Source: Felis catus (Eukaryota). Taken from it: a stretch of DNA of 64,000 nt. The position numbers were made by a program, and so were the translations under genes. The stretch spans positions 69,814,001 to 69,878,000 of the forward strand of contig NC_058368.1 of the NCBI RefSeq assembly GCF_018350175.1. Direction: 5' to 3'. Positions within the stretch are counted from its first letter, which is position 1, and each line of letters opens with the position of its first letter. Under the pieces are notes generated by a model. That model was not told the origin of the DNA. It worked only from the letters and a program-made list of their open reading frames with translations, and searched no databases. Shown here piece by piece: positions 7,522 to 58,271 of this stretch.

Positions 7522-7737
7522 GGGGCGCCTGGGTGGCGCAGTCGGTTAAGCGTCCGACTTCAGCCAGGTCACGATCTCGCGGCCCGTGAGTTCGAGCCCC
7601 GCGTCGGGCTCTGGGCTGATGGCTCAGAGCCTGGAGCCTGTTTCTGATTCTGTGTCTCCCTCTCTCTCTGCCCCTCTCCTGTTCATGCTCTGTCTCTCTC
7701 TGTCCCAAAAATAAATAAATGTTGAAAAAAAAAATTT
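7522..7737 (+). mobile_element. Young felid SINE (SINEC_Fc-type)
   Basis: gcgcagtcggttaagcgtccgacttcagccaggtcacgatctcgcgg head with CpGs intact; perfect TSD aaattaatttgcttct. Confidence 0.92.
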
Positions 7738-8033
7738 AAATTAATTTGCTTCTCTAAAGATGAAGCATCACAAAAGATCTCTTAAACATACCAATAAAAC
7801 CGTTAGGTCCGGTGGGTTCTCAAAAGGCAAGCATCTAAACCACTTCTCTCCTGCCCCAAAGGACTAGAAACCAGCTCCACATCAGTCAATCCTCCAGAGC
7901 CCAAAGGATCTCAGATGTCAGGCCAAAAAAGCAATGTTAGCATAAAGGACCTGACCTGGGACGTACAGGTGAAGAAGGAAAAAGGCAAGTTATCTGGATG
8001 AACTTGACCCTGCAGAAAGCAAGTTGGCTAATA

Positions 8034-10440: not shown

Positions 10441-13400
10441 CCTTAGTGGTCGTTTACCTTCTGTGTGCTGCTCTCTGTTGACGCTGATGCTTTTCACCCC
10501 TGGTGAAATCACCCGGGGAGCTTTTAAAATTCCCTCTGTCTAGACCACAGTTGAGAACAAAGAAATCAGAATCTCCAGGTGCAGCCAGGCCTCAGGGGTT
10601 TGTAAGCGCAACCCCCCCCCCCCCAAACACAGGTGATGCTCCCGCCCATCACACCTCTGCAGGTGACTGATCACCCACCCCAGGGGGAGAACAGGGTGGT
10701 GCCTAATTAAGCAACAGTAAGGCACCCCTTCCTTGGGGCTGAATGGCTCAGCTCATGCAAAAATGGTTAAACTACTGGCTAGATGTCTGAAATCTCCCTG
10801 GTAGAAGGGGGAACAAGCCACCAGGGAGAGGAAGCCCAACAAGGAGAATGGGAAAGAAGGATGTCACAGGACAACAGTCAGGTGCAGGGAGGCCACCGGG
10901 GGACAAGGAATGAGGAACCCGCAGGAGTGAGTCCTGAACCCAGCTTAACTGTGATACCGGGAGAAAATGAAACCAATCAGCTTGTCTGTGCCTTGGTTTT
11001 CTAATCCAGACAATATAGAGAGTGTGTCAGGAGCCCCCAAAGTCCTTTCCTGCTCTGATAATCTATGGTTCTAATTTCCCTGCCTATATGTAAGGAATAC
11101 TTATTAAATGGCAAGTGAAGCTGAATTAGAGACAGGAAGGAACTTCATTTTGCAGATAAGGACACAGGTCCAAGATGAAGTGACCACACCACTGGTTTAA
11201 CTCAGGGCCAGGGCTACATCTTCAGAGGTAAGACCCTAGCTCCCTAGGGATGGGGTCAGAGGGGCTAGAAAACAGAAAGGTGATAGGTAAAGGCGACCTC
11301 TCCCTTTCTAACTAGGTCTCTTCTCTAGCTCCTGTAGAATACTGCCCAAAAGCAAATTTGCAGACCTTTTCCCCAATCCCCAAGCCTCTATCCCACGTCA
11401 AGTTGGAGCTGTTATTAGCTTACAAACCTACCTACCTCAAAATGCAGAAAGAAATGACCAAAGTGGAATCTAAAACCAACGGATGAAGAATATTTAGTAT
11501 TACAGTAAATTAAAAAATGTAAAGACATGTGGCTCCCCAGGGCAGATCAAACCACCCAGGATCCATCCTTCCTCTCCACAGCTGCCCACCACCTAAAATA
11601 CTCCTGTTTTGTCTTGGATGGTCCCCAGCAAAGGGAGAAAACAATTCCAAGTTGAAATGATGACCACCCAGACCTTCCAGACACCATCTGAAGGATTCTG
11701 AAAGAGACAAATCTGCCAAGGTGTCACCCCACAAGTAATCCGTCGTTGCCAGTTTCAAAGACAAATATTTTCTGCAACCTGGAAACATCTCCTCAATTCA
11801 ACATTGCAAGCCAGAACAAAGTGTTTTCAGTTCAGGTGCTTTGAGCCAGGTTACCCACCACACCAGGAACCCACAGAAGACTCAGGAGCCAAGATGCACA
11901 GTAACTGCCACCACAGATGTGAGTACATCACTCAGTCATCAATTGAACAGTCAGCTAAAATTCTCTGCCTGAGCATCATTCCTAACCCATGACCAGGAAG
12001 GAAACACTGGGGAGGGGATCAGAAAGAAGATCAGAAAGAAGCCAGTTACAAAAATGGGGTCTCTGCCACAGCCCATCATCCAAGGCAAGGTCAGGTTCTA
12101 CTTCTCTGCAAAACTGCAGACCAAATGTAACAGACTGCCTCAGAAGCGGATCCTACCAGTCTCCACTAATAAAGCCAACTCTGGTCTTCTGGAAGCATCT
12201 GCTAGATAGAGACCTTCTTCCTGTGTGAAGCCAAATCTCTCTCTGAGAAGTCAGGGCACACCTTAGATCTAGCCAACTGCTATCTGTTTACACCAAAACT
12301 GAAGACAGAAAAATCACGTAACTATCTTAAAAAACTACAGGGGAAAAAAAAAAAAAAGGTGGTATTGTTTGTTACTTTGTTTTTAAAAAGCCCTCTAACT
12401 AGGAAAAGAGTCTGACTTTAAAAAGACAAAAACAAAAGTCCATACACCAAAATTCTATACGAAACACCAAACCTGTTAAAGAAAACTTTAAGATGCATTC
12501 TCTTTAAGATCAAGACCAAGACAGGTATATCCTTCCTATCCCTACATAGTCAACACAGTACTAGAGGCCACGGCCAAAACCTAAGACGTAAGACACTGAT
12601 GAGGTGGTGTAAGGGAAGACAGAAAACTCATTATTTATAGGTGCAAGTATATGCATAGAAAACAGGAATTCAGCAAGATTACCGAAAACAATGTGGGAAA
12701 AAAAAATCTTCACAGTGCCCTAAACTAGGCAATCCAAAAATATATCATGCCAAATAGCCATAAAAAGTTTATGTCCAGGAACTGACCTACAAATCCACAA
12801 GATCTTTATGGCAGAAAATTTAACTTTATTAAAGTTCACAGAAGACAACCCCCCAAAAAAGGCAGGTGTTTGTATTCAAGGATAGAATGGCTTAAGACAT
12901 CAATTCTCAAAAATAAATTTTTAAATTCCAGTAGGATCTTAAACAGAAAATGTACAAATTCATTCTAAACACTGTATGGAAAAATAAAGACCTTCAAACA
13001 ACTCATGCAAATGCTTTTGTTGCATGTGGGAAAGGTGAAGTGGGTTATCCCTTCCGGATATTAAGACTTAAAGCCAAGCCAATAATCACACACTCAAACA
13101 CACACAAACCATGAATGATACCAGTCTTGCAAGAGAATAAAAAATCCATAAACAGGTCTAGAAATACAGAAGACTCATACCTGTATGGGGGAAGGACAGA
13201 TCGTTTATAGAATAGTAATGGACAGCCTGTACCACTACATGGGGAAAAATAAAACCCCTCCTTCCTACTATATACCGACAGATTAAAAATCTAATAGAAG
13301 TTAGGCTAAAAGAAGAAAAGAAAAATTTAAACACTTTATCTCCTTAGTGAATTCGCAGATTCTTTAAAAAGGATCCCAAAAGCAGAAACCAGAACGTGAA

Positions 13401-13770: not shown

Positions 13771-14282
13771 TGTAAAAGGAGTGAAAGAAGCCAGTTACAA
13801 AAAGCACAGACCATAGGATCCCATTTATATGAAGCTTTCAGAATAGGCAAATCGATACAGACAGGAAGTACATCATTGGTGCCTAGGGCTGGGGAAGTTG
13901 GGAGGAAACGCAGGGTGACCAGTAATGGGAAAGGCTTCTTTCTGGGGTGATGACAACATTCTAAAGTTCACTATGGTGATGGCTGCACAACTCTGTGACT
14001 ACACCAGAAGCCACTGCATGGTGCATTTTTTAAATGGATGAACTATGTGGCATGTGCAATCTATCTCCTTAAAGCTGTTTTTAAAAAGGAAAAACAAAAA
14101 ATAGAGAAACCAGAAAAACGCAGAGTATAAGGTAGTAAAGCTATTCAGAACATGCTGGTATTAGCTAAATAAGTATCCCACTCCAGAATATACAGTCCAG
14201 AGGGCTGACAGGAATAAGAACCTCATGAAAAGATACTCAAAATCCTAAGTCATTGGAGAAATGCAAATTGAAACCACAATGA

Positions 14283-22735: not shown

Positions 22736-22966
22736 CTTCAGGTAGGATCCATAATATTTCGTTACGTATGGACTGTCACACTGACTCAGCACTGTGATTT
22801 CTTGTTGAATGTCCTCTATCTCATCTTCAGCTTCTTCCAGATCAATGATTTTTATGGCAACCACTTTCTGAGTCCGAAGGTCAATGCCTTTGAACACCTC
22901 ACCAAAAGAGCCCTTTCCAATTTTCTCCAGTTTTGTAAAAAGCTCTTCTGGATCTGCTTTCAGGTT
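22736..22966 (-). CDS. STK24: STK24 (MST3) common coding exon 2, kinase N-lobe, 231 nt, phase 0/0
   Basis: Translates to [77 protein letters not shown], with the GxGxxG loop, VAIK lysine and alphaC Glu. Acceptor is ccttctcttctacAG after a polypyrimidine tract; donor is AAG|GTAAGG. NLKAD, LEKIG, QKVV and SPYV match STK24 rather than STK25 or STK26. Confidence 0.97.
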
Positions 22967-28949: not shown

Positions 28950-30614
28950 GCCTGGCTCTCCAGCCCCCTCGAAACCTCCACTGCTGCGTCCAGAAACGTC
29001 CGGGAAACCACACTTGGATTCCACTTCTGGCTGCTTTATTCTCTTTCCCATCACCCTTTCTTCCTAACGACACCAGGCCGCCTGCCCCATTAAACCTTAG
29101 CTAAATCCTGGACCTTCCTGGGCACTCACGCCTCGGCTTGCCTGTTTTTAATTACAAGATCTAGGGAAACCGGAGCCTGTGTTGTATGTACTTCCTCCTA
29201 TTAGGTCAGGATCCCTGAGAACGGACCGAAATAACTGGAAGACGCATTCCCTCAGATGCAAGGATCGGACACAAGTCTGGACTCTAAAAATGCTCCAAAG
29301 CCCTACCCCCACAAGCCCAGAAAACCTTCAGGCTCAAGGATTGTGGGAAGAGCCAAAAAGCCACCAGGGAAAGTGCCCCAGGTGAATCCAGAGTCAATGG
29401 TTTCACCGAAGTTTCTCACTGATCAAGACCTGGAAGTTTCAGGGTGACCAGCTACCCCAAAAGCCAGGATCTCCTACCAGCCCCGGTTTGTAACAAACAA
29501 ACACATCCACAGCAGTAGTGTTGCACAGGCCACCTGCACCTTCAAGATTCCTCTGGAAAGAAATGCCACGTGGGCAATGTCCTCCCCGCTCCAAGACTCT
29601 GAGACGCTGCAGGGCTGTGTCCTTCTGAAGTTCAGGCTTCTGCAACAATTCACTGTATTTCATAATCCCTCGAGAGAATTCATTAAAATAGTTCTACGAT
29701 GACAAGTATTCTGTATTTTTAAACCTGAATAGCTCTTGCTGTTTTATTTGGATCGTTTCTGGCAACAAAACACGCATCTGGCATTACTAATCAACTTTCA
29801 AAGCTCCTTGGCTTTAGATGGACCGCTCACACAGCCGTGCCGTACTACACCGCTCTGGGTTAAAGCCAAGCTTTTCTCTTTGTTTCTCCAGAAAGAGAAA
29901 AAGGAGCCAAGTTTGATATGTTCGAACGCTTGCTACCTGTTACATTACTACCCCTGCAGCGTCAGAGGGAACATTGGATGGGGAGGGGGAGTCCGTGGCA
30001 GGAGTGCCCCATCCCCACCTCTGGACCGGGGAAGCATCCGTCTGGCAGCTGAGCTCGGCCTCGAGTCCTGCTCCCCACCCCCACCCTGCCACCACCCCAG
30101 GCGGCCACCACCAAGGCAGCCGACAGGCACACAGCTGCACCTACGTGCCAGCCAGATGCACCCCACCCCCAACCTGCCTCCGCCCTGGCTGCTGTCACTT
30201 CCCTTCCCTATCTGCCCGGCTCTGCCACCCCGTGCTCCAGCGCCACTAGTGTTACTGCCTACCATTGCCAAAGCTGCAAATTCCGGCACCCCAACTCCTC
30301 TCCCATCCCTCCCTCCAAACCGTACACATCACCCTTCTGAGACGTCTCTCCGCGCGGAGCCCCCTGCCTGACTCGACAGCGGGTGTGCCTCCCACTGACC
30401 CACTACGCGACCTTCCAAAACCTGTTGGCAGATTTCAGCTTCCAGAGAGCCCACGGTTTTCCTCTGCCGCTTAGAACAGCTGAGGACAACGCGTCATCTG
30501 GAGACCGAAGTCACACTCAACTGTGAAATCTGAACCTCACGGCTCCTTCCTTACCCCACTTTTCTGCCCCCACCCCCACCGATCCTCCCATCGCCCACCT
30601 TCTCAACACGGTCT

Positions 30615-35032: not shown

Positions 35033-36982
35033 GTCTGGGGCAGGGACAGCACAAACTTGACCTGGAGAACTTTCACCTCACCCATCTGCTTTTCCCCACC
35101 CGGGAAGCAATCACATCAGGGTGACTAGGGACACGATCAGGGCTGGGCTATCTCGCCGAGGCTCAGCTTTTCAATCTTCCCCACCCCTGACACCCCAGCC
35201 TCCATGGACTTCACCCTCCTAGTAACTAGCCAACCCTGCAAACCCCTTCTCCACCTGTAGCCCCCAAGGGTGTTCTGTGTATTAACTAGCTGGTTAACTT
35301 AAGGTCTCCAAAATAAAAACCTTTATTTACCACACAAAGACCTTTAGACAGCAAATGGCTTCAATCAGCTCAAAGAACGGACAGAGTTTTCCAGTCCTCG
35401 TAAGAAGTCTCATTCCTGGCTAACTGATGAAAGACCATTTTGTCATTGGAGGCCTGAGTCCCAGGTTTATGCAGAAATGACGATGAATCCACGAACACGC
35501 ACAGGAGGAGCCGCTCAGGGGCCTGGCTCCAGGAACAGAACAGAGAACCTCCTTCTCTCGGCGGGAGCCCTGGCCTTCTTCACCTGAGCTCTCTGAAGCC
35601 ATCGCAAAGCCACTAACCACCCCACAACCTGACTTGGGAAACACTACTCCCCATTCTGTACACTTCATTTCAACCCTGCAAAAACCACATATTCTAGAAG
35701 AAACTGAGTAAATATTCTACAGCATTTGGCAAAAAAAAAAAAAGAAAACTGAGAAAAAGATGTTAAATCCTATGAATTTTCATGTCTAGGCTTACATGTC
35801 CATACCACCAGGAGTTTTAGGGATTCCTAGTTCCAAGTATCTACTCTTCTTTAAATGGATGTTTGCTTAAGGTAGAAACTGCTTAAGTTTTAAAAACACA
35901 AATACCAGTTTGGGGTTTTTTTTAAACATTATAAATGAGGGGGGGAAATGTACCACCTAGCTGAATCTACTGTTTTGTCCTCAGTACCTAATAATCCCCC
36001 CTCACACACACACACACACACTTGTCCCTTAGGAAAACACTGTCTGAAACTCTGAGCTCAGAGCTCAGGGAGATGCCACTTTTAGGAAAGGGAGGGCAAG
36101 CTGAGACCCATGTGCCAGGGAGGGGAAGGGTCCAGGCCGAAAAGACCACTTGGGCTCACGCTGTTTCTCAGTGCAGACTGAGCAAAAGGGTCTGAGGCTC
36201 TTACCACCTGCCCAGGGCCAAATGCTCATCCACAACCCCATGGACCACAGGGGGACTGATCGCAGAGGGAACTGAGGTCACCAGGGCCCAGGTCACAGAT
36301 CTTTGTGCCAGCCCCGGCCTGGCTGAGCTTCTCTACGCCCCAGAGTCCCCACAAAACAAACCTCTGACCCCTTCCAGGGGTTACTGGGTATACTTCCCTC
36401 CCATCAAAGGCTCCCTGCTGACCAATGGTGGCCTAGGGTTTCTCTGGGATGGTGAGCAGGCCCAGACACCCAGGCAAAGACTGAAATCAGGACGGCTTTG
36501 TAGGGCAAGCACGCGATGAGAAACACACAATGCATTCCAAATAAATGATCTAGAGCTCACTGAGGAATGGGTGATGGCACCTCCTTTACTGAAACCGACC
36601 CATGCAAACAGGCTTGCGCCCTACTGGAAGCCATGACAAACAGCAGCCCCTCCAGTTTCCAAAGCTCCCCCACTCCCCAGGCTCTGTGCTAAGTGGTCCG
36701 CCTAACTATGCCTTTCCAGACCTCACCACCACCCCAGGGAGAAAGAGAACATGATCCTTGTGACGCAGCTGAGCGCAGTCGGGTGCTGAAGCGAAGTCAC
36801 TTGTGCGCAGTCCCCCGCAGCTAATAAGGGGCTTAAGCCCTGCTACCTATGCATCAAGGGTCATCCTCCGTGTGGGAAAGTGCACGCTGGCAGCATGCCT
36901 GGCTGAGCAGAACCCAGCCGGCAAGGTGTACCCTCGGGTTGTCACCACGGAATACTACAATGAGCAGGAGGAGTGCAAAAAG

Positions 36983-37125
36983 CATTTGATTTGCTTTTCA
37001 AGTGTTTAGTTCTCTTTTTGGGGAATGCAGCAGCTCTGTACTATCCTTGGGTAGGGACGGATTTCACTGAAGTGGTGAACTTGTGGAGGGTGGTGTGACT
37101 GGCCATTTCTTCTCACTCAGCCAGG
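36983..37125. repeat. 143-bp inverted duplication, copy A
   Basis: Reverse complement of 43555-43697 with 2 mismatches, both in the T-run (tctttttg vs tttttttt). Confidence 0.95.
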
Positions 37126-37725
37126 TGAACCCCCCCCCCCCACCGCCTGTATTTTACAGAAGATTTGCAGTAACTAGCATCGGGGACTGGTCTAAAAACC
37201 AGATCAAATAGTTGTCGATGTATTTATATTTCAATCAATAATCACATTTCCTCTTACTTGAAAATCCTCAGCTTTTAGAGTGAGGCATGAAGGGGAAAAT
37301 GGATGAAATAAAAACGCTAACGCAAAGAGCAAGGTTGATCTGTCACGAGTAGGAATACAGGCACCCCGCCACCAGGGACACAGAAGGCATCCCCGAGCGT
37401 TCTTCTAGCCCTACGAGGGGTGGCAAGGGTGACAGAGGGTGCATTCAGTGTTGGCCAATCTCCCGTTTCTCAGAAGCCCTGCTGCTCCCACTCAACCGGT
37501 AAGACAACTGTCAGGTCAGCTGTCCTGTGTGATCCTGAGGAGGGTTCAGGCCCTGATGGCAGGGACAGCAAACCGCTTCCAGGAGGAGACAGTAAACACC
37601 TGAGCTTTGGAGGCCAAACAGTCTCTGTTGCATATTCTTCTTTTCCCTTTTTCTTTAAACAACTCTTTAAAAATGTAAAAACCATCTTGGCTCAGGAGCT
37701 GACAAAATGGGCCAAGAGGAGTGGC

Positions 37726-38170
37726 AGGCACTTGGGTGGCTCAGTCAGTTGAGCCTCTGGCTCAAGACTCTGGCTCAGGTCATGATCTCACGGTTCATAG
37801 GTTAGAGCCTCACACCTGGATCTGTGCCAGCAGCTCAGACCCTGGAGCATGCTTCCTATTCTGTGTCTCCCCCTCTCTCTGCCCCTGCCCCACTCTCACT
37901 CGGTCTCTCTCTCTCTCTCTCTTTCAAAAATAAACAAACACTTAAAAAAATTTTTTTAGGGGCGCCTGGGTGGCTCAGTCGTTTGGGCAACCGACTTCAG
38001 CTCAGGTCATGATCTCATGGCTAGTGAATTCGAGCCCCACGTCGGGCTCTGTGTTGACAGCTTGGAGCCCAGAGCTTGCTTCAGATTCTGTGTCTCCCTC
38101 TCTCTCTGCCCCTCCCCTGTGTTCTCATCCCCCCCCCCCCTCTAAAACAAACATTTAAAAAAAATTTTTT
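37726..38170 (+). mobile_element. Two tandem Can-SINEs (second starts at 37959)
   Basis: Two units; the pair is flanked by aatgggccaag. Confidence 0.88.
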
Positions 38171-39949
38171 AATGGGCCAAGGGCAGCTGTAGTCTGCCCA
38201 TCCCGTCAGACCTCCAAGACGGTTAATACATAAGACTTTGTCTACCGCCTACTGTGTGCTCCCAGTGCAGGACAGAAGCTGTGGCCTCAGAAATAACTTC
38301 CATGCCTCCCTCAACAGAACCAAGAAACACCCATCCTCCCATCTCCTCACTGCCATGCCCCTTCGCTGGTCCTTTAGCTTCCCAAAGGCAAAGAAAGGGA
38401 GACATATGACCTGTGAGCACGTGTAGAGTTGTACCCAGAGCTCTGTTCTCTTGGGCTAGTCTCATCTCCTCACCACACCCTCTGAAGAAAATACTTCTAC
38501 AGGTGAGACAATGGAGGCTCAAAGAGTTTGTGCTCCTCAGAGCCAGAGGGGTGGTGTTTAGCTCTAAAGCCCAAGTTCTATTGCCCTACACCATGACCCC
38601 TAAAGACGCATCTCAGACGGACAAACTACCCGGTAAGGACACTTATTTCTCCAGTTAGTGCCAGTGATGGCATCTCTTTGGGTCGTGGTCCCCAGGCGGG
38701 GTCCCAGGGAGACAGGCCCGTCGGGGACAACTGCTGAGAAGGGGAAAGAACTACCCATCTTCAAACCACCCTCTAATAACAAACACAAACACCTTCAACC
38801 TAGCATGCAATTTCTCCACCGTAGGCCAGCTCTCAGCTCCGCTCCGCTGCACGGCCCGCCCTGAACAGCGCGCAAGGCCGTGAGTCTGTATCGGCCTCCC
38901 CTGATGTACAGAAGGAGACAGTCACAGCAGCCCACTGCCTGGCATGGAGCGGACCCTCGTACGTGTCCCACTGCATGAATTAACGGGGAAAGCGACGCAC
39001 AACCTAGAGGTCTTGAGGCCACAGCTGCCGTGCCAGCAGAGGGGCAGCAGACAGGCCCTCCTAAGTTAAAGCAGCAGCTGACGCACGCCCGGGGGCCTGG
39101 CGTCACCGGCCACAAGGCAACGGCTCCCATCCGGCTTGCATGCTAAAGGTGGAGACCGTCGGTGGCTTTCAGGCAGTCAGCTCTGTTCTCTGCACTCCCT
39201 GCTGGGGAATGTTCAACAGGGAGCGAGAAGGAGCAAAACTATTTCTAGTCCTCGTCTGGGTCCATTTCCACTGCCTTGCATCCCGACAGCAGTTAACAGA
39301 CCGTGGAGCCCGACCGCCTAGATCTGACCCCCCGCTTTGAGGAGGGACCCTGGACAAGCTGCTGAGTTGCTGTGGGCCTCTGTTTCCTCTTCTGTAAATG
39401 GGGACAATAAAAGCACTTGCATTGGGGGCGGTGGGAGGTTAAGTGGGTTCACCGGCGCGAAGGGACTTGGTACCCAGCTGCGTGAGATAGCCAGCAGCAT
39501 TATACCTCGCTACTTGGTTGCAGGTTCGGTTCAAGTTCACAACCGGCAGACCCTACCATGCAGATTTTACTGGCAGCCTGCATCCTGGTTTTCCAGCGTC
39601 ACATCAGATACGTGCTTTCCATCGCCCCTCATCAATGTCACAAATCCACAGGGATGCAGCAAATCCTCATCACTTCCAGAATCTCCTTCCGGAGGACCAC
39701 ACCAGACTTCAGGTTTTAGTAAAGAAAGAAGTGTTAGACCCTACAGCACAGTGTCTGGCCCAGGGAAAATTTCTCATCCTTTATCCAGTTACCTGCACCT
39801 TAAGTTGGCCTTGGGCTCCAGAGCAGAGATGCTATCCTATTCACTTTCTGCGCTGTGTCATCCTCTGTCCCCTCCGTGGACCTTTCTTCCCTCCCACACA
39901 GCCCCTGCCCTCCCCCTCCCTTCTTGCTCCTTCACCAGACCCGAGGTGA

Positions 39950-39986
<37 letters not shown>

Positions 39987-40257
39987 ATGAGCACTGAGGA
40001 AACCACAGTAAAGGTATTACTTTGTTCTGTCCTACCAACGGCTGTCACGACTCCTGGACGATATCAGAAGAAACATTAAATGAGGAGACGCAGGAGTCCA
40101 GGGCTGGGCGGTGACTGAAAGGAAAGCTGTAATAACTAAACCTTACAGAAAGAGTTACACCACAGATCCTCATGCCCACCAAACGAAATAGAAAGGACAA
40201 GATGTTTATATTAACTCAGCCTGCAGTCCACCTGGCACACTGGTCTCAATTTCTATT

Positions 40258-40493
40258 CTTTTTGTTGTTGTTGTTTATTTATTTTGAGAGTGAGCACGAG
40301 TGGGGGAGGGGCAGGGAGAGAGGGAGAGAGAGAGGGGAAGGGAGAGACAGAGAGAGAGAGGGAATATCTCAAGCTGACTCAGCGTTGTCAGCGTGGAGCA
40401 CGACGCGGGGCTCAAACCCACGAACCATGAGATCATGACCTGAGATGAAATCAAGAGTCAGATGCTTAACCGACTGAACCACCCAGATGCCCC
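40258..40493 (-). mobile_element. Can-SINE
   Basis: Reverse orientation; TSD tcaatttc(t/c)attct. Confidence 0.88.
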
Positions 40494-40719
40494 TCAATTT
40501 CCATTCTGTTCACTCCAATCACACTGCCCTGAAGCACACACCTCTTCAACCAGTGGGTACAGACAGCTACAACCATAAAATGCCTCCAAAGGGGTAAATA
40601 ATGTAACAATTTTTTTGTTGCTTTTCTCCATTTTGCCATGTTAATGGAACAATATCAATATTATTATATTGGATGTACTGGTAAGTCTATTAAATCTACT
40701 AGAAATAGGTCGCCCCTCC

Positions 40720-41290
40720 CTAAATTGCCAGTTGGATATAAAATGGTATGGCCACTTCAGAAAGCAGTTTGGCAGGTTCTCAATAAATTAAACACAAGAC
40801 CACCATACGACCCAGCAATTCCACTTCCAAGAGAAGTGGAAATCCTAAGGGTCCACACAAAGACATACACGCGAATGTTCACTGGAACACTGGAAACAGC
40901 TTAGATGTTCCTCAGCTGGTGAAGGGACAGACACAATGAGGCACATCCATACAATGGGGCACTATGCGGCAATAAAAGGGACCAAGCTACTGACAACACA
41001 TGCCACATCACGAACCTCGAAAACATGCTAAGTGAAAGGAGACAGTCACAAGAAACCACAGACTGTACGAATTCCCTTCTATGTATGACGTGTCCGGAAA
41101 AGTCAAAGCAATGGAGACGAAGGAGAGTAGGGGCTGCTGGGAACAGAGGTCGACTGTAAATCAAGCACAAGGGGTCATACTGGGGAGACGGCAATGTTCT
41201 CTACTGACTTACCGGGAGGGCTGCACCGCTCGGGAAAGTTCCTAAAAATCACTGAACTGTACACCCGAGGGACTACATTTTGTGGTCAAA
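40720..41290 (+). mobile_element. Old L1M 3' fragment
   Basis: aaatggtatggccacttcagaaagcagtttggcagg...ccatacgacccagcaattccactt...aacctcgaaaacatgctaagtgaaagg. Confidence 0.75.
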
Positions 41291-41703
41291 TACAACACAC
41301 CACCATCCCGCAAGCACATCGCACATCGCGTGCCCGTATTCACGTGTGTCCCCCAAAGGACTGTGAGGCCTACAAGGGCAAGGACTTCCCACGGCTCGTC
41401 TTCTCACATCAGCTAGCGCAATACCTGGCATGCGGGGAGCGCGGCAATGTCCATAAATGAATGGTTTTGTGGAAAACAAAACAAACAAGCTTTGGGGTTT
41501 TCCATAGCTTCCACAGATCCCCCAAAACTTCTCACTGCTGTCTACTCTTCCACCCAACCTGCCCCCAAACACAAGGGCCACGGCAGGCCACAAAGCAAGG
41601 ATATCCATGAAACTTCAAGCTGCTCAACAGCAAGATGTATCCTGATCAACTCTATGAAGAGCAGTGTCGGTCTCTGTTCCAAGCTTAAAAAGAAGAAGAG
41701 GTT

Positions 41704-41912
41704 TTGGCGCCTGGGTGGCTCAGGCGGTTAAGTGTCTGACTTCGGTCGTGATCTCACGGGTTCGTGAGTTCGAGCCCCACACTGGGCTCTCTGCTGTCGG
41801 CGCACAGCCCACTTCAGATCCTCTAACCCCATCTCTGTCCCTCCCCTGCTCGCACATGTGCGCACTCTAAACATTAAAAAAATAAAAAAGAAGTTAAAAA
41901 AAAAAAAAGAAA
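41704..41912 (+). mobile_element. Can-SINE
   Basis: Head, body and A tail. Confidence 0.88.
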
Positions 41913-43163
41913 AAGAGGCTGTCTTATGTCTTCATTATGGCATTATCACGAAAACTTCCGGGATCGTTAAGAGGAGAAGAGCATGATCTTTAGGATCAGA
42001 TTCCAAAAAGATGGCGGCTCAGGGAACTTACAATCGAATCTAAAATAAAATCTTAACGTCTTTCAGGAAAGATTTATTTTTGACTCAGAAGCAGCCAATT
42101 TAATAAACACACCAGATACTGTCCCAAGAGGATTAAACACAGCAAGCAAAGCGATAAAGTAAGTCGTGGGCTCACTTGCGCTCTGCGCCATTTTATCTGC
42201 CTAGTGAACAGTCCCCAAGAAGGGGATGCTTCAAAACACCGTAATTATTACGGAAGAACTACATTAACCTTGCCTTGGAAATGCAAGAGTTTATTTTCTC
42301 AACCAGTACAGTAGCAAAAATAGTGCAGCAGTGAGGAAAAATGTTTTTGCTCACTGTATCCCACACGGCCTAGAACTCATGTACTTCCTACCATCTCATA
42401 CCACGACCTGTTGTTGAACAGAGAAATACCACATACTTCCTCGTGGCAGAAACGTGAAGTGAGTGGTTAAGGGTGTAGGCTTTTGAGACAAACTCGTTCA
42501 AAGTCTGCCTGCCTCTACCACACATTTGCCTAATGATCTTGGGCGACTCACCTAAGCTTTGTGTTGTGGTTTCCGAATCTTTTGAGGGGATAAAGATTCA
42601 ATGAGTTCATTTCCCCTAATCATAGGCCACTTATCCCACCTGGAAGACTCAGGTGGTTCACAAAACTGCCTTATTTTCTGGACAAGGTGATCAACTCTCA
42701 TGACTTAATATTTTCCGGCACCACGTTCTGCCAACCCCAGCGGAGGCAGGTATGTCAGCCATTCTCAAATAGTATAAACAGGGACTACAACAGGCAGCCC
42801 TCTGGAAGGTATGCAAACCTACATCGATGCTGCTAAATAAGGACCGCTCCCAGCCAACACTCGGGGTCGAGGAGGTACGGGCAGCAACTCTGACAAAAAA
42901 ACAACACACTTACCCTTTGCATAGTCTCAGAAACAATCTCTACTAAATAAGGAGGCTGGTTCCAACTTCCTCCAACCTCCACCCTGCATTTTATTGACCG
43001 TGACTAAAATCGAGCCCACCTCATAGACTCTGGGCTCAATTCAACTATAACACAGTAATCCCGCACACCCCTCATACATACGACATCTTAGACTCCAGAC
43101 AAGAGTACAAAAAATAGTTCACTTCAGATTAAGAAACAGACACATTAAATCTCACATAGCTGA

Positions 43164-43385
43164 GGGGCACCTGGGTGGCTCAGTCAGTTAAGCGTCTGAC
43201 TCTTGGCTTCGGTTCAGGTCATGATCTCACAGTTTGTGAGTTCAAACCCAGCATCAGGCTCTGCGTTGACGGTGCAGAGCCTGCTTGGGACTCTCTCTCT
43301 CTCTCTCCCCCTCTCTCTGCCCCTCCCCCACTCGTGCTCACTCGCTCACTCTCTCTCTCTCAAAAATAAACATTAAAAAACAAAT
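43164..43385 (+). mobile_element. Can-SINE
   Basis: Head, body and A tail. Confidence 0.88.
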
Positions 43386-43554
43386 TTTAACAATACGTAA
43401 ATACTCAGGTTTCCTGGCTCCTAATTTCCACAGCACCTTTGTGTATCAAATCCCCTTTTCAAGGAGGGGAAATACTCGGGGCATGAGGGAAAAGTCGCCT
43501 CACCAGAAGGCCACCAGGGTAACAGGAGAGAAAAGATGGTCCCGGGCTCTGCTC

Positions 43555-43697
43555 CCTGGCTGAGTGAGAAGAAATGGCCAGTCACACCACCCTCCACAAG
43601 TTCACCACTTCAGTGAAATCCGTCCCTACCCAAGGATAGTACAGAGCTGCTGCATTCCCAAAAAAAAGAACTAAACACTTGAAAAGCAAATCAAATG
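43555..43697. repeat. 143-bp inverted duplication, copy B
   Basis: cctggctgagtgagaagaaatggcc...gaaaagcaaatcaaatg is the reverse complement of 36983-37125 at 141/143. Confidence 0.95.
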
Positions 43698-44255
43698 AAT
43701 AATGCAACAAAGTCCCCCACCCCCACCCTGGGCTGGACTGCAGCATGAAGGGGGCATAGATTTAAGGGACGCTAGCACGATGCTTGTTCCCAATTGTTCC
43801 CGTAGAGCAACTCCACTTTGATTCAGAGGTCAGGTTTTAGAAACCTCAACCCTGAGGAAGCACGATGCCTTCCACTTCCAAACGCAAAAAGGCCTCCGAG
43901 CACAGAAATAGTGGTCACGAATGCTAAGCCCTGAATTCACCTGCACCGCTCTGCCCAGGAGGGGACCTCAGTCCCTCTCTCAGAACGTTCTGGTCCACAA
44001 CACACACTCTGAGAAAGGTCCCTAACCCACAGCAGATTAGACGCAGCAGCCCGGGAGAAGGGGGGCCAAAGAAGTGGCTCTGCTCGCAGTGGAAAGAGGG
44101 AAAAGGCAGAGAGGAGCCACCCCTCCGTTCCCAAGGTCGCATCCAAGGACACCCCTGACTTAAAGACCTCCCAACTGGCAGAAAATGCCAGCCATCCCCC
44201 ACCTCCAAGGGTGAAGTCTGAAAATACTATGCTGAAATAATGAAGAGGATGCCCT

Positions 44256-50100: not shown

Positions 50101-51956
50101 GGTAAAAATGCTCATTTGCATGGTATTTTTGCTTAGTTCCAGAGGCCCAACTGTAAGCATGCAAAATATACAGCCTTCTGTCCTCAATGTGTTTTTAGCC
50201 CAATTTAAAACAAAACAAAACACTTCCGAATCAGGAAAAAAGACTAAGTTCAACTTCCAAAAACGTGTATGTATGTAATATACTAGGACCAGCCTGTAGA
50301 AATCAAGACCTACCTAGGTTTTCCAATCTCGACTTATTATCTGTCCTCCAAGCAAATCAGAAATAAACTGGGAAGCCACCTAAGCCACTTTAGGCCAGTT
50401 TTGGATAATCTGGATTATCCAATCCATTAAGGAGACACCACCTGACTCGAAACCCCCAGATGTCACCTTTTTTAGCACTCTTACCCTACTCCAAACTGAA
50501 ATCTTTCCAATGCCTTTTCTTTCCCATTTTCTTAGGTAGGAAGAAAAAAACATTAATCTAACTCATCTACACCAGTTACCCCAGACTACAGCCAATTCTA
50601 TGAAAAGACCCCATCTGCTTGGAATGCCCTTCACCCACTAGCACTTTAAAAAACTACTCAGATACACACTCAAATGCCACCTCCTCCAGGAAGGCTTCCT
50701 TCCTTTCACCCACTTTGACTAGTATCACCTCGCACTCCCAGCACTTGCCGGGCATGTCAGAATGTCTGCAGGACAATGGGCTGCGAGCGCATTAAGAGCA
50801 GGCATAGCTCATCCACTTCCCCAGCCTCCAGCATGGGGCTTCAACATCGCAGACATCCAATATATCTGTTGAGGAAGGAGTTTCCCGTCTCATCAAGACT
50901 ATGAAAAGCACTTAAGTGCTGGCAGAAACTGGATTGCTTAAGAGGTCTTAGAGGTTGGTGACATTTCTGACGGAGCTGCTGAGATAGGGAAGAAAAAACA
51001 TCAAAAGGCACTCCCAGCCTTCCCCTTCAGTTCTGAATGGAGAAGAGTGAACGCCCCACCCCGCCTTTGTAATTAATGCAACCACAGAATCCTAACCCTC
51101 AACATTAGCTACCCCTGGGGAATAAAAACCATACAATTCTGCATTGTTTGATTTTTTTACAGTTAATTATGTATTCCTTCTGTAATATTTTAAATAAATT
51201 AAAATTTGTAATAGCTCAATTTTTTTAAAAGGTATCTACATTAGTTTGGGGCGGGAGAAGGGGGGGTACCACGTAGATTTTTTCCCTTCATACCATCCCC
51301 AACAGCCTTCCACAGAAACTGAGTTATAGGAAGGGGTTTAAACCCTAACTACCAAACCGAGGTCAGAAGCATGAGAGACGCTGAGGACAGGTCAGCGTGA
51401 GGGCAGCTTCTCGGAACCTCAGGACATGAAGGCGTGAGGCCACAGGTGGAGGCAGAACAGGCTCAGAAGCAAATCACCTGCAAAGCACCCAATTCCACCT
51501 AATTCACACCTAATTCGAGATGTCCTTCCACCCCACCCTGCTGGGAAAGGAGGGGATGAGGGAAATTTCAGGGAGTCAAAACAAAAAGGGAGATCTACTT
51601 AGAGAAGAAGGTACGACATTCGTACCTTCATGTTCTGTGTCCTTTAACTTAACATGTCTGTTAACAGTCACAAGATAATTGAAGGAGCAGAGAACCAAAA
51701 AGGAAGTGTGCAGAACCCCCCCCCCCATTAGAATCTCCCCAGGGTCAGGTTCCTGGATGGCTGCCAAGAGCCACTAACTTCCCAAGACATAATTTTGGAT
51801 GCATGCATCTTGATAACTCCAAATGCATGCAGCTTTCGCGATGACAGAGACCAAGGAACCCAGGCTCTCCCACACTGAGAGAAACTACTTGGTCAAGTCA
51901 GAAACTAAAAAAGCCAATGAGGAGAAAATGGGGTACAGATAAAAAAATATTCCAGT

Positions 51957-52200
51957 GGGGCGCCTGGGTGGCGCAGTTGGTTAAGCGTCCGACTTCAGCC
52001 AGGTCACGATCTCGCGGTCCGTGAGTTCGAGCCCCGCGTCAGGCTCTGGGCTGATGGCTCGGAGCCTGGAGCCTGTTTCTGATTCTGTGTCTCCCTCTCT
52101 CTCTGCCCCTCCCCTGTTCATGCTCTGTCTCTCTCTGTCCCAAAAATAAATAAACGTTGAAAAAAAAAATTAAAAAAAAAATAAAAAAATAAAAAAAAAA
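51957..52200 (+). mobile_element. Young felid SINE (SINEC_Fc-type)
   Basis: Near-identical to the 7522 copy; TSD aaaaaaatattccagtg. Confidence 0.92.
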
Positions 52201-52500: not shown

Positions 52501-54323
52501 CTCTTTGTTGTTCCAGTCACTCCCCCCAGAGTCCGCACTTCCCCAAAACACGTATTGCCCACCGCTCTTTACGGAACAGAACTGCAAAATGAGCCATTTC
52601 ACTTTACCTATTAAAATTAGTTCTGGCTAACAGAGTAAAAAAACTGAGCAGTTCTGATTTAACCCAGCAACTTTCATAAATTGTCATCTCCAGACCCCCA
52701 AGTTACCTAAACCATCAAGCCTTAGAGATTAACTAAAAGTAAACCAACTAGATAAAACTCCAAAATCCTTTTCTCATGGGAACTGGCATCTTATCATGCT
52801 TAAGTTTTACACTTATTAAAGAAAAGGATTTTAACAATGCAATCACCGCAAACAACCCACCCCAACACTGCTTTCATTCTTCCCAATTCCCTCTCAGGTT
52901 GAACCAGGTGGAGTAAGGAGCCCCACAGGAAAATCAGCATCATCGATGGGGCTTAAAACGAAAGCTCTTTGTTTAGCTGATCTAGAGGCTTCTACACCGA
53001 TTTTTCCAGGTGTAACTAAAGACTAAAATGTGTGAACGCGCTTGTTGAATTCTGCTCTCCAGCTCATTGGAAAGCTGCTTTCTGATCCACCCCAGGAGCC
53101 ACATCCATTAAACCACCCATGAAAGAGATTCAGAGTGAAAAATTAAACAAATGCTAGGTACTTGGAGCTCTGGCATAGGATTTAATCTATTACAACTTTT
53201 TCAAAAGAAACTCCTGCCACCTCAGAACACTGCAAGCTGCTCCTGACTTCAGGGCAATCAGCTCGTGAACTCTGCCCACTGACAGCGGATTAACACCCAT
53301 TCCTCCACCCTGGGGCCTCGGGTGGCAATGCTCTGATGCCGGGGACAGCAGAGCTCAGAGCACGACGACTCACAGGTCTCGAACAGAGCTCGGGCACCAT
53401 TTCTTTTATCGATTTTCAAGCTGCCACCTCCTGGTTTTTCATTACTCCCTCCTCTGTGCTGCTTCCGTGCCTGACACTTCTGCAGCTGCCTTGAGCCCAC
53501 TGACAAGCATGTGTACATACATGCCTCCTGCTATTAGAATGTAAGCTCCCTGAAGACAGGGCTTATCATTTACCTTCCCAGTTCCAGTGCCAGCACTGGC
53601 GTATGACATGGCAGACCCATCTTCCTCAAGCATATACGTCTTCGCCTACAGATGCCATCGACCTTTCACTGCCTGACACTCTGCATTTTAGGTAGCTACT
53701 TAGAGTAACACATTCTCCCTACAATCAAGGACTACTGCTTGTAGCAAGTAGTATAGATGCTTTCCCAACAGCCAGCTAAAATCGGTTTTAAAACAAGGAA
53801 TCGGATCTTTAATTGGAAACTACTGAAACCTATTGCAGGGGGTGCAGTAAAGAGGTCCCATACCAGAGCCATAGTACCAAGGAGGCGTTAACAGATGGAG
53901 GACAAAGGGCCTGGGAGTAACAGAGCCAGCACCCTGCAAGAGGCCACCCTGGCCTGCACAGGGCCAGTCCTACACCAAGAAACGAAAGGAAAAGGCTTCC
54001 CTCTCCTCCAGCTGTCTTCTACCAACTGGCTTCCTGCCTTCAGAACCAGGACTCTGACCCTTAAATTATAGCTCAGTTAGGCTTATCTAGCCTAGCCTCA
54101 CAATTTACCCACCATTTATAAACTCATTTCTATAAGAAAACACGTAGGCATTCTAACCAGCAAACTTACAAATGAAATCAGAAATGAATTTGGTGAAGAT
54201 CTGTATTTTAAACTTTATTTATGACACATGAAAAATTTTACTTCTGTTTGCATCAAACTGTAACCGTGATTATGGCAATAAATTACAATCAAAATATTAA
54301 TATATCCCTTACCAAATTTTTCT

Positions 54324-54542
54324 GTTTTTTTTTTTTTTTCAATGTTTATTTATTTTTGGGACAGAGAGAGACAGAGCATGAACGGGGGATGGGCAGAGAG
54401 AGAGGGAGACACAGAATCGGAAACAGGCTCCAGGCTCTGAGCCATCAGCCCAGAGCCTGACGTGGGGCTCGAACTCACGGACCGCGAGATCGTGACCTGG
54501 CTGAAGTCGGACGCTTAACCGACTGCGCCACCCAGGCGCCCC
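54324..54542 (-). mobile_element. Young felid SINE (SINEC_Fc-type)
   Basis: Reverse orientation; TSD aaatttttctgtttt. Confidence 0.92.
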
Positions 54543-54576
54543 AAATTTTTCTGTTTTATAAAATACTACAACGCAT

Positions 54577-54970
54577 GGGGCGCCTGGGTGGCTCAGTCAA
54601 TTAAGCATCCAACTCTTGATCTCAGCTCAGGTCGTGATCTCGTGGTTCATGGGTTCGAGCCCTGCATCGGGCTCTGTGCTGACACAGTGGGGCCTGCTTG
54701 GGATTCTCTCCCCCTCTCTCTCTGTCTCTCAAAATAAATAAACTTGGAGCATCTGGGTGGCTCAATCGGTTAAACATCTGACTTTGGTTCAGGTCATGAT
54801 ATCACAGTTCATGGGCTCAAGCCCCACATGGGGCTCTATGCTATCAGTGCAGAGCCCACTTCAGATCTTCTGACTTCCTGTCTCTCTGCCCCTCTCTCAC
54901 TCTCGTTCTCCCTCTCTCTCTGAAAAATAAACATTAAAAAAAATTTTTTAAGAAACTTTAAAAAAATTTT
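54577..54970 (+). mobile_element. Two tandem Can-SINEs (junction about 54745)
   Basis: Two head/body/tail units. Confidence 0.87.
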
Positions 54971-55067
54971 AAATGCTACAAGGCAAATGGCCGGCCAGTC
55001 TACACTTTCAATGTTTCATCTTAAAATAGCAAAAACTTTTACCACACAGTATCTGACAGCACTTCCT

Positions 55068-55493
55068 CTTTTTTTTTTTTTTTTTTCAATGTTTATTTAT
55101 TTTTGGGACAGAGAGAGACAGAGCATGAACGGGGGAGGGGCAGAGAGAGAGGGAGACACAGAATCAGAAACAGGCTCCAGGCTCTGAGCCATCAGCCCAG
55201 AGCCTGATGCGGGGCTCGAACTCACGGACCGCAAGACCGTGACCTGGCTGAAGTCGGACGCTTAACCGACTGCACCACCCAGGCGCCCCAACTTCCTCTT
55301 CTTTTTAAATGTTTTTATTTTTATTTTTGATAGAGAGAGGAAGAGCACAAGTGGGGGAGGGTCAGAGGGAGACACAGAATCTGAAACAGCCTCTTGGCTC
55401 CGAGCTGTGAGCACAGAACCTGCCACGGGGCTCGAACTCACAAACTGTGAGATTATGACCTGAGCTCAACCGACGTAGCCACCCAGGCGTCCC
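55068..55493 (-). mobile_element. Young SINEC_Fc-type copy (55068-55289) abutting an older Can-SINE (55302-55493)
   Basis: Both reverse; the young copy is flanked by acttcctctt. Confidence 0.9.
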
Positions 55494-55807
55494 TACTTCC
55501 TCCTCTTCTTTAATTGCATGTCTATCCACCAACACCCATTTTCGTGTCCACGCTCATAAGAGCTAAACAAAGACAATAAATCATACAATAAAGAAAAATT
55601 TCTAAATTTGAATAAAGAGAAAAGGCAAACGAGTTCCGGCAGAATTCGGTAATGCTAAATTCCCTTATCGTTTGCCTTGTATTTCTCAAATGTTTCTATT
55701 CGTTAAAAACATACGTATCATAGAAGGGTACTAGTACAGGTTCATGTCCCTTATCCCAAGTTCCAAAACCCCCAAGTCTCTGAAACGCAACCGTTTTTCC
55801 TAAGTCC

Positions 55808-56040
55808 TTTTTTTTTTTTTTAATTTTTTTTTTTTTAACGTTTATTTATTTTGGAGACAGAGAGAGACAGAGCATGAACGGGGGAGGGTCAGAGAGAGGG
55901 GGAGACACAGAATCCGAAACAGGCTCCAGGCTCTGAGCTGTCAGCACAGAGCCTGACGCGGGGCTCGAACTCACGGACCGCGAGATCATGACCTGAGCCA
56001 AAGTCAGCCGCTTAACCGACTGAGCCACCCAGGTGCCCCC
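55808..56040 (-). mobile_element. Felid Can-SINE
   Basis: Reverse orientation, full length. Confidence 0.9.
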
Positions 56041-57245
56041 CTAACTCCTTTAGAGGGAAGATCTAAACTGATCTGAAACCAGCTGGCAGAACAGGGGCAA
56101 GTGACATGGCGCGATCCCCTCTTTGCACTAACAGACTGTGGTGGCTCCCGCCCCGTGGCCACTCCATGCAGCCAGGCATACGGACTTCAACACTGGGACC
56201 ACTGCTGCCAGCAGCCCCTCGCTCATGTGTGCACCATGTACAGGAAGGAAACACGAATACCCAGCATGAATCATATGCTATGAAACTGCTACAAAGTAGC
56301 CTGGTCCTATTCAGGGTGAATGTTTGTTCAGAGCAGTGATCTTAAGTCACCATGTTTGTACCTCCCGTGGTCCTGCCAGTTTCCATATCATCTATTACCT
56401 CTCGTTAAAGCAAAAGACTGGAAAGAAACATACATGATATTAAAGCTACCTTAAAACTAGAAAAGCTTATCACATATATAGTCTTCATCTGAAGAACAAT
56501 TCAGAAGAATACAATTCAGCCAGGCAGAATTCCTGCCGTTCACCTCCCTCAGGTCCCTACAATTTGCCTGACCCGCTGACTAGAGGACGCCCGAAAGGAG
56601 AGTGGTTTTGTGGTTGAGTTACCGTGCACACCAGTGTAGGCATGCACACACACGCACAGTCTTTGCGGGGGGGCCCCAGTCCATATGCACTGTCCTCCTC
56701 CTCCTCCAGCAGGGGATAAGGAGCCCAGCAGGAATTTGCAATACCACCTCATCAGTGGTCCAGCTTATCAACGTAAGCAAAGCAATTAACCGCAAAAACA
56801 TTAAATAACAATAACAGTGCTCTCCAATAATCCAGTTAAAGGAGAAGGAATGATGAATAAGCTTTTCTTTCTCCAAAGGTAAAAGAAAGTGGCAAGATTA
56901 CTCCAACCAGCAGAGCCAAACAGGACTGTGCTTTCTGGCTGGAGCTCTGTGTCCCACAGAAGAGGCACGCCTTACACGGAGGAGGCAAGGGTAAGTCTGT
57001 TAAGGTGATAAAACAAATCACGTGGAAATGGGGGACAATATCTATGATCCATTTCTGAATGGAAAATATAAAACGTGCACCTGTGTATGTGTAACTGCAA
57101 TGTCTTAAATATATGTATGCACAGAGACAACCAGAAAATAAGCAAAAAAAAAAAAAAAGAAAAAGGACCAAAAAAAACCCCAGCTATATTCAAGTAGTGG
57201 AACCAAATATGCTTCCGCTTTAACAATAATTTAATGGGGGACCAG

Positions 57246-57635
57246 GGCTCCTGGGTGGCTCAGTCGGTTGGGCATCTGACTCCTGATTTCGACTCAGGTC
57301 ATGATCTCGCGGTTTGTGGGTTTGCGCCCCTGCACTGGGCTCTGAACTGACAGTGCGGAGCCTGCTTGGGATTCTCTCTCTCCCTCCCTCTCTGCCCTTC
57401 CCCTGCTTGCTCTCTATATCCCTCAAAATAAATAAAACTAAGGGTGCCTGAGCAGCTCAGTCGGTTAAGAGTTCGACTTTGGCTCAGGTCATGATCTCGC
57501 GGTTTATAGGCTTGAGCCCTGCGTTAGGCTCTGTGTGGACGACAGCTCAGAGCCTTGAGCCTGCTTTGGATTCTGTGTCTCCCTCTCTCTCAAAAATAAA
57601 CATTAAAAAAAATTTAACAGATAAATAAAAATAAA
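57246..57635 (+). mobile_element. Two tandem Can-SINEs (second starts about 57441)
   Basis: Two head/body/tail units. Confidence 0.87.
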
Positions 57636-57648
57636 AGCCTTTAAAACA

Positions 57649-57870
57649 TTTTTTTTAATTTTTTTTTCAACGTTTATTTATTTTTGGGACAGAGAGAGAC
57701 AGAGCATGAACGGGGGAGGGGCAGAGAGAAAGGGAGACACAGAATCGGAAACAGGCTGCAGGCTCTGAGCCATCAGCCCAGAGCCTGACGCGGGGCTCGA
57801 ACTCCCGGACCGCGAGATCGTGACCTGGCTGAAGTCAGACGCTTAACCGACTGCGCCACCCAGGCGCCCC
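57649..57870 (-). mobile_element. Young felid SINE (SINEC_Fc-type)
   Basis: Reverse orientation; TSD taaaacattttt. Confidence 0.92.
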
Positions 57871-58271
57871 TAAAACATTTTTAATAATAATAATAATTCA
57901 ACGGGGGAGAGAGTGAGAGTATTTTCCCAGAGGCGGGGGGGGGGGGGTCCTATTTCTGGACCCATCTTCAACCCCACGTTTCACATTACTTTTTAATAGA
58001 CTACACACAGGAAACGTGGCCAGAGTTAGCGGTGGGGCTCTCACACTACAGTGGATCACCACGTGAAGGCCTTCCACTGGTTTTCAAAGAGCTTTACGAT
58101 CACAGACTCCTCAGCAGAAGCAAACGCAATTATCGCTACTCTGACACAAGAGGACAAAGGGAAGAATCATTTCCATGGAATTTCAAGACCAGCCTTGACT
58201 TCTATGGCTAAAACATGAAGAAATAATATGTGCAACAAACCCTTTAGAAAAAGTACTGAGAACTTCACCAT

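Follow-up and report, generated by a model that had tools for sequence, protein, structure and literature searches.

The STK24 (MST3) gene occupies the minus strand of the 64-kb window, a term used here for the whole stretch of Felis catus DNA that was analyzed. It was recognized from a coding exon at approximately 22736–22966 (minus strand), whose translation corresponds to the N-lobe of the STK24/MST3 kinase and whose best PDB matches are to STK24 (E 2e-39). Two copies of a short sequence in inverted orientation lie upstream of this exon, in one large minus-strand STK24 intron, which we take to be intron 1; the exon supports the initial annotation in naming STK24 as the host gene. Peptides expected from the first exon of STK24 had no match in the 64-kb window. 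Three SINEs at 54–56 kb are spaced by ~748 bp, and a tandem duplication was considered for this spacing and rejected. STK24 is not listed in the supplements of a cat paper (PMC12789764), and 10–15 intronic SVs per STK24 transcript are tabulated, without coordinates, in a cat study (PMC7581003). Comparison of a 22-base flank pattern with metagenomes returned one locus, on a GC-rich bacterial-type contig, where the match spans 28 bases only and represents chance.

In the assembly sequence, the copy at 36983–37125 (plus strand; the acceptor) is identical to the reverse complement of the copy at 43555–43697 (minus strand; the donor) at 141 of 143 positions, confirming the near-perfect inverted duplication, 6.4 kb apart, from which this work started. 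The mismatches, at 37014 (C vs. T) and 37020 (G vs. T), fall six bases apart in the same T/G tract, and the self-match has a BLAST bit score of 250 (E ~1e-68). A self-comparison of the window, proposed earlier as a check, identified the pair as its sole low-copy match above 80% identity; among exact words of at least 18 nt outside SINEs, the pair likewise gave the sole match longer than 21 bp. The acceptor insert measures 143–152 bp, the larger figure being the unit counted across a block at its left end (96% identity). With a size of at least 50 bp and a separation of more than 50 bp (a gap to the donor of 6,429 bp), the duplication is non-tandem. Neither a poly-A tail nor a terminal inverted repeat was found on the pair, and there is no TSD, the best shared flank word being 3 nt in length and 22 bases off; the claimed absence of all three features was thus borne out. 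An L1-driven retrocopy (class 1 TSIP) was rejected because of the missing TSD and poly-A tail. Beyond the arms, no homology was found apart from a 4-base block (P 0.09 and 0.66), and a tile scan with permissive gaps gave spurious alignments only. The ends had been described as sharp, but the left one is not entirely so, a 4-base in-register match being present past a 5-base block.

The strand composition of the intron distinguishes the two copies. The A+C skew of the window is +0.11 on the plus strand. The 43.6 kb copy has a skew of +0.30, the same sign as the gene, and 23 of 350 non-overlapping 143-bp tiles reach +0.28. The 37 kb copy has a skew of −0.29, opposite to the gene, and none of the 350 tiles reaches −0.28. 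With overlapping tiles, the frequency of the skew band is 0.079 for the donor value vs. 0.0003 for the acceptor value, or ~250:1. Because the skew of the 43.6 kb copy has the sign of the window while that of the 37 kb copy is reversed, the former is the donor, in native sequence, and the latter is the newcomer, a polarity that strand skew settles without outside data and that agrees with the donor position originally claimed. Together with the anatomy of the junctions, the skew also supports the proposal that the 37 kb copy probably arose as a locally templated insertion.

The 6,429-bp spacer (37126–43554) is oriented like the rest of the intron. Its masked skew is +0.109 (halves +0.091 and +0.127), compared with +0.118 on either side, and all 89 tiles outside it are skew-positive (minimum +0.056). 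SINE orientation, with four plus and one minus in the spacer and 26 plus and nine minus outside, gives a likelihood ratio of 24 for a spacer that is not inverted. Since the spacer skew has the same sign as the window, the spacer has not been inverted, and the suggestion that the pair could mediate its inversion finds no past event here. These measurements also decide on a 6.4-kb inversion by staggered breaks with inverted duplications at its ends, a mechanism that, in the model of Ranz et al. (2007), leaves duplicates of unique sequence in just this inverted arrangement. Had the spacer been inverted as recently as the pair arose, however, its skew would be reversed, whereas both the skew and the SINE orientation bias match the flanks; this explanation was rejected and is scarcely credible. 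As a point of method, intron strand skew polarized donor and acceptor and excluded inversion without an outgroup.

The donor may lie within a decayed MIR-like context (43541–43706, plus strand), a label assigned from two short MIR motifs fitted after the sequence had been viewed. The motifs match 43541–43552 and 43693–43706, flanking the donor, with chance means of 0.03 and 0.01. A profile built from 11 noisy MIR-like seeds in the window gave no match, and summed pairwise scores against the MIR-like copies of the window gave P values of 0.27 for the donor and 0.21 for the acceptor. A six-copy window profile HMM matched weakly across 43555 (top 1.2% of 600 nulls), and the match vanished with seven or 10 copies; these profiles missed 1 of 6, 2 of 7, and 5 of 10 held-out copies. 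The MIR-like donor context of the initial annotation is hinted at by the motifs on both sides, but window-built profiles gave no stable match to it.

Both acceptor junctions carry words that are repeated within the copy. At the left junction, alignment reveals a 4-base in-register microhomology, TGCA (36974–36977, plus strand), with the donor flank at 43703–43706, followed by a 5-base block, AAAAG (36978–36982, plus strand), which replaces donor TTATT and has the signature of a fold-back or short-range template switch. Extended by bases 1–2 of the copy, AAAAG forms a 7-bp inverted repeat with 36992–36998 across a 7-nt loop, and the predicted hairpin has a free energy of −4.7 kcal/mol vs. −1.6 at the equivalent donor position. 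The full left-junction pattern, which was set post hoc, occurs at 247 of 108,354 window positions (P 0.002). At the right junction, the bases TGAAC (37126–37130, plus strand), taken with the two terminal copy bases that precede them, repeat 37074–37080 in the copy interior, 50 nt away; TGAAC could be templated filler or a microhomology that guided a broken end to the donor. A C12 run (37130–37141, plus strand; G12 on the transcribed-sense strand), one of eight C/G runs of at least nine in the window, adjoins the insertion and is a candidate stall or break site. The donor’s own junctions have spanning words of 4 and 5 bases only. All junction statistics were defined post hoc, after the junctions had been seen: copy-templated words at both acceptor junctions have a joint P of 0.0006–0.002 with thresholds fitted to the observation, a looser spanning-word statistic for both ends gives a joint P of 0.005, and each end by itself gives P 0.02–0.12.

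The pair is probably a repair-mediated, templated short duplication of an ordinary, described kind. Following a germline break or a stalled fork at ~37.0 kb, a DNA end may have used a few bases of microhomology to invade the intron at a distance of 6.4 kb, ~150 bases would have been copied in reverse orientation, and the other end would then have been rejoined. In the simplest order, the nascent strand would be the minus strand. Its 7 terminal bases at the right junction have a match in the donor, 50 nt from the start of copying, and would have served for priming. After copying of the donor, this strand would fold back near its end, templating 5 bases, and would finally anneal to the left flank at the 4-base microhomology, a course that would leave the donor intact and the spacer unturned. 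The enzymes were likely those of polymerase theta/SD-MMEJ or of microhomology-primed SDSA, and the resulting insertion is probably a neutral scar. The single locus has little weight, with hundreds of like duplications per mammalian genome already catalogued, and provides a tidy example in which repair signatures are readable at both ends. It is a possible homoplasy-free presence/absence marker for carnivore phylogeny or population work, and short-read callers may falsely report a 6.4-kb inversion here.

The closest described class is that of the repair-mediated duplications (RDs), of which 824 are known in human and 192 in dog (Pace, Sen, Batzer & Feschotte, 2009; PMC2671141), together with the “doublets” of Thomas et al., which that paper also describes. 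Proximal RDs have a mean of 162 and a median of 147 bp, RD breakpoints show microhomology of 2–9 nt and filler of 1–68 nt, and an inverted intronic RD has been described in ACSBG2 (PMC2671141). The present pair is like them in consisting of a single additional copy of short, locally derived sequence, 143–152 bp vs. the median of 147, with an intact donor, junctional microhomology and filler, and no poly-A, in a class known in dog and other mammals. It is unlike the proximal set, in which it is not filed, in that its copies lie 6,429 bp apart, past a 5-kb cut-off called ad hoc by the authors and beyond which 41% are estimated to be true RDs (PMC2671141). RDs are further recognized by an interrupted annotated TE or an orthologous empty site at the acceptor, whereas the present assignment draws on the pair, its junctions and the strand skew. 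SD-MMEJ-consistent junctions contain a repeat motif of at least 4 bp within 30 bp, plus primer and microhomology repeats (Khodaverdian et al., 2017; PMC5728401). The left junction resembles such polymerase theta joining, with a 2-nt primer repeat and a 7-nt motif within 30 bp in snap-back geometry, whereas the right direct repeat lies 50 nt away and the main insert was templated 6.4 kb off, far past the range of SD-MMEJ. Both the distance, in exceeding the 5-kb confidence range of Pace et al., and the right-hand repeat, in lying beyond 30 bp, speak against the repair reading. The left block also follows the four-point model of short-range template switching, as a 5-base cluster that is the reverse complement of nearby sequence and makes a perfect inverted repeat before the alignment returns to register, although the cases of Walker et al. 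(2021; PMC7954356) differ from a block of merely 5 bases at an insertion edge. Class 2 TSIPs (Onozawa & Aplan, 2016; PMC5110952) similarly are templated patches with microhomology and without TSD or poly-A, but their donors are distant rather than 6.4 kb away, and they are polymorphic, whereas the present copy is known from one assembly.

The template itself could have been RNA. For class 2 TSIPs, the authors favor an RNA source (PMC5110952), and an analogous repair in cis would copy the patch from nascent STK24 pre-mRNA tethered by RNA polymerase II: a broken minus-strand end would be primed on the pre-mRNA, in which transcription passes the donor 6.4 kb ahead of the break site, and synthesis would finish by fold-back. 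The simplest junction model does have a minus (RNA-like) template strand and a donor upstream in transcription. At this locus, however, copying from RNA and copying from the coding DNA strand look alike, proximal RDs are attributed to DNA templating (PMC2671141), and the TSIP authors allow template switching as an alternative; we consider RNA templating unlikely. If it did occur, the duplex that the copies can form, with its unbroken run of 105 bp, would be a by-product of repair, and skew would offer a reference-free way to polarize doublets genome-wide and to test for a donor-upstream bias.

That the 37 kb copy came from a chimeric read or misjoin is suggested by the location of both internal differences in one homopolymer tract and by the C12 run at the right end, but misjoins do not usually yield a small inverted segment that carries microhomology and fold-back bases at its ends and is followed by the original sequence, and the 64-kb window contains no ambiguous bases (N), making an assembly artefact quite improbable. 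We give similarly low credence to a young dispersed repeat, or to derivation of both copies from a third locus. In the 64-kb window, to which the copy count applies, two copies of the 143-mer contrast with ~40 SINE pieces, TSD, tail and TIR are absent, the donor bears the long-term skew of the gene, and no Rfam family was found at gathering level (four matches at E ≤ 1, all under gathering scores). Gene conversion between two old MIR copies would draw on the MIR-derived appearance of the donor, itself presumed from the two short motifs, and on the abundance of MIR-like pieces in the window; a converted paralogue should nevertheless run on as a diverged match, and none continues past the ends save the 4-base block, which renders this origin very improbable.

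The initial annotation had also envisaged a duplex of roughly 143 bp in the pre-mRNA, and the arms are indeed computed to pair very stably, at a predicted −282 kcal/mol. A dsRNA role of the predicted duplex, whether in editing, small RNAs or splicing, is possible. On the minus strand, the arms contain 51 A (36983–37125) and 25 A (43555–43697), and SINE pairs are present at 52–58 kb. Each arm folded alone was no better than shuffles (z +1.17 and +0.61), and a hairpin RNA in either arm was rejected on that basis. Editing of intronic inverted repeats is highest at a separation of 300–400 nt and levels off near 1% as the arms lie farther apart (Athanasiadis et al., 2004; PMC526178). Like these ADAR substrates, the present arms lie opposed in one pre-mRNA and can pair; unlike the SINE substrates, they are unique sequence, shorter, and 6.4 kb apart. 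The same intron contains many inverted pairs, including longer and closer inverted SINE pairs, and among the pairs compared in it the 105-bp perfect run of the computed pairing is the most perfect intramolecular duplex.

The initial annotation had described a near-perfect 143-bp inverted pair, and this pair is real at the assembly level: positions 36983–37125 match the reverse complement of 43555–43697 at 141 of 143 positions in the assembly sequence. The two differences between the copies (37014 and 37020) both fall in a single T/G tract. Inspection of the junctions confirmed the earlier statement that the pair lacks a TSD, a poly-A tail and terminal inverted repeats. Self-BLAST of the window yielded three low-copy matches, the remaining two being fragments at 76–77% identity, and exact words of at least 18 nt outside SINEs formed five pairs in the window, the four besides the inverted pair measuring 21 bp or less. 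A minus-strand exon at ~22736–22966 codes for the STK24 kinase N-lobe, so that both copies lie upstream of this exon in one intron, which we take to be STK24 intron 1. The exon (22736–22966) reads GIDLRTQK, where the human protein presumably carries Asn instead of Leu. The SINEs of the window appear to us to resemble carnivore SINEs. A metagenome scan for the locus gave one match, by chance, and a narrow search of the cat/felid structural-variant literature found no paper on this STK24 locus.

The polarity of the duplication can be read from strand composition. In mammalian introns, an excess of T + G builds up on the non-template strand (PMC2927911), and a minus-strand gene is therefore expected to show an A + C excess (skew) on the plus strand. 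The skew is +0.30 in the 43.6 kb copy (43555–43697) and −0.29 in the 37 kb copy (36983–37125); of the window's 350 non-overlapping 143-bp tiles, 23 have a skew of +0.28 or above and not one is as low as −0.28, and the minimum among 49,872 overlapping tiles is −0.273. These signs identify the 43.6 kb copy as native sequence and its 37 kb counterpart as foreign, at odds of about 250 to 1, which bears out the donor originally proposed, independently of the MIR argument used at the time. As to that argument, two short motifs that we take to belong to the MIR consensus match the donor surroundings (43541–43552 and 43693–43706; chance means 0.03 and 0.01), one of them also matching at 30215. The motifs were fitted after the sequence had been seen and weakly suggest a possible MIR-like origin of the donor context; profiles built from MIR-like copies in the window itself gave no consistent match there. 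That two old copies were made alike by gene conversion is very improbable, as no homology continues past either arm of the pair.

The acceptor junctions are themselves informative. At the left end, TGCA-AAAAG-core in the acceptor stands against TGCA-TTATT-core in the donor; AAAAG plus the first two core bases form an inverted repeat of 36992–36998, with a 7-bp stem and a 7-nt loop. This is the scar expected of a fold-back switch returning to register, as described in PMC7954356 and PMC5728401. Of 108,354 window positions taken as mock flanks, 247 show the same pattern. At the right end, TGAAC together with the two final core bases runs into a C12 tract and duplicates 37074–37080, which lies 50 nt inside the copy, so that this end departs from the 30-bp distance rule given for SD-MMEJ, a polymerase-theta-type end joining (PMC5728401). 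P values for the two ends were 0.03 and 0.016 (joint 0.0006, or 0.002 allowing donor flanks) when thresholds were fitted to the observation; a looser spanning-word statistic gave 0.12 and 0.04 (joint 0.005), with spanning words of 7 and 7 bases at the acceptor junctions versus 4 and 5 at the donor's own. Since these tests were designed after the junctions were seen, the statistics, which point to templated ends, are suggestive rather than decisive.

We consider it likely that the pair is a local duplication of an ordinary kind, templated during repair, whose junctions still carry legible scars. The most economical reading would be a single repair event in which the minus strand was nascent: priming at the right junction would be followed by copying of ~150 bases of the minus strand of the donor, fold-back close to the end of copying, and annealing of the nascent end at the 4-base microhomology on the left; we infer not only the order of these steps but also the break itself and the enzyme. 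A plus-strand route, with TGCA priming and slip-back at the right, is possible and requires an additional event on the left. An RNA template, as for class 2 TSIPs (templated sequence insertion polymorphisms; PMC5110952), is an unlikely alternative. It would be compatible with the preferred geometry, where the template shares its sequence with the RNA and is transcribed before the insertion site, but this geometry does not favor it. The divergence of 1.4% (2 differences in 143 bases; 95% range 0.2–5%) corresponds to an age of about 7 My (0.8–25) at an assumed rate of 1e-9 per site per year, although the duplication may be much younger, even polymorphic, because both differences fall in one homopolymer tract.

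A staggered-break inversion (PMC1885836) would offer another origin, and an inversion of the pair's young age would flip the skew of the 6,429-bp spacer (37126–43554). With SINEs masked, the 89 overlapping 6.4-kb tiles that lie outside the spacer all have positive combined skew, averaging +0.109 and never below +0.056, and the spacer, at +0.109 (halves +0.091 and +0.127), keeps the same sign; the model was therefore rejected. SINEs are oriented 4 plus to 1 minus in the spacer and 26 plus to 9 minus outside. What we take by eye to be an old plus-strand L1 3′ fragment at 40750–41300 would agree with a spacer that was not inverted.

Pace et al. (2009; PMC2671141) described repair-mediated duplications (RDs; mean 162, median 147 bp) in human (824) and dog (192), with breakpoints showing microhomology of 2–9 nt, filler of 1–68 nt and no poly-A, including an inverted intronic case; that paper also describes the ‘doublets’ of Thomas et al. 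and notes that RD pairs may promote inversion. The STK24 pair works like these RDs and shows those of their features that were tested here, but its membership is provisional, since its two copies are farther apart than the 5 kb that delimits their operational set, the former empty site is deduced, and copy number was counted within the window. Elsewhere in the window and outside masked SINEs, 12034–12054 and 13783–13803 form an exact 21-bp direct pair separated by 1.75 kb, which may represent another tiny doublet or else an old repeat that escaped masking.

Pairing of the two arms is computed at −282 kcal/mol; the duplex contains a single G-U and a single U-C position, and its perfect run of 105 bp exceeds the 53–57 bp of the three best SINE pairs. 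Of the 115 inverted BLAST matches of at least 100 nt in this part of the intron, however, 44 lie within 6.5 kb, and four score above the STK24 pair. A young SINE (51956–52181) is 95–96% complementary to three inverted young SINEs (54318–54543, 55069–55290 and 57649–57870) over arms of 222–226 nt, 2.1–5.5 kb apart; at about −445 kcal/mol, these pairs make better candidates for ADAR substrates than the 143-bp pair does. Editing of human Alu pairs peaks at 300–400 nt and drops to ~1% with distance (PMC526178). Some editing of the STK24 pair is plausible; a selected role for its duplex is not indicated. An Rfam search and folding against shuffles detected no structured RNA in either arm alone. On the minus (sense) strand, two hypothetical splice signals occur: a weak 5′ splice-site-like word (37111–37119) introduced with the acceptor copy and, in the donor, a pyrimidine tract that ends in CAG (43560–43574). 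An Rfam Fibro-purF match at 37515–37587 (35 bits versus a gathering score of 60) is probably due to chance, being well under that score and folding no more than modestly better than shuffles (z −1.19). The dense SINE cluster at 54317–57890 holds five of the nine minus-strand SINE pieces outside the spacer, and tandem duplication was rejected for its three copies spaced 747/749 bp. The SINE copies at 7521–7740 and 51956–52175, 44 kb apart at 97% identity, apparently represent a very young subfamily.
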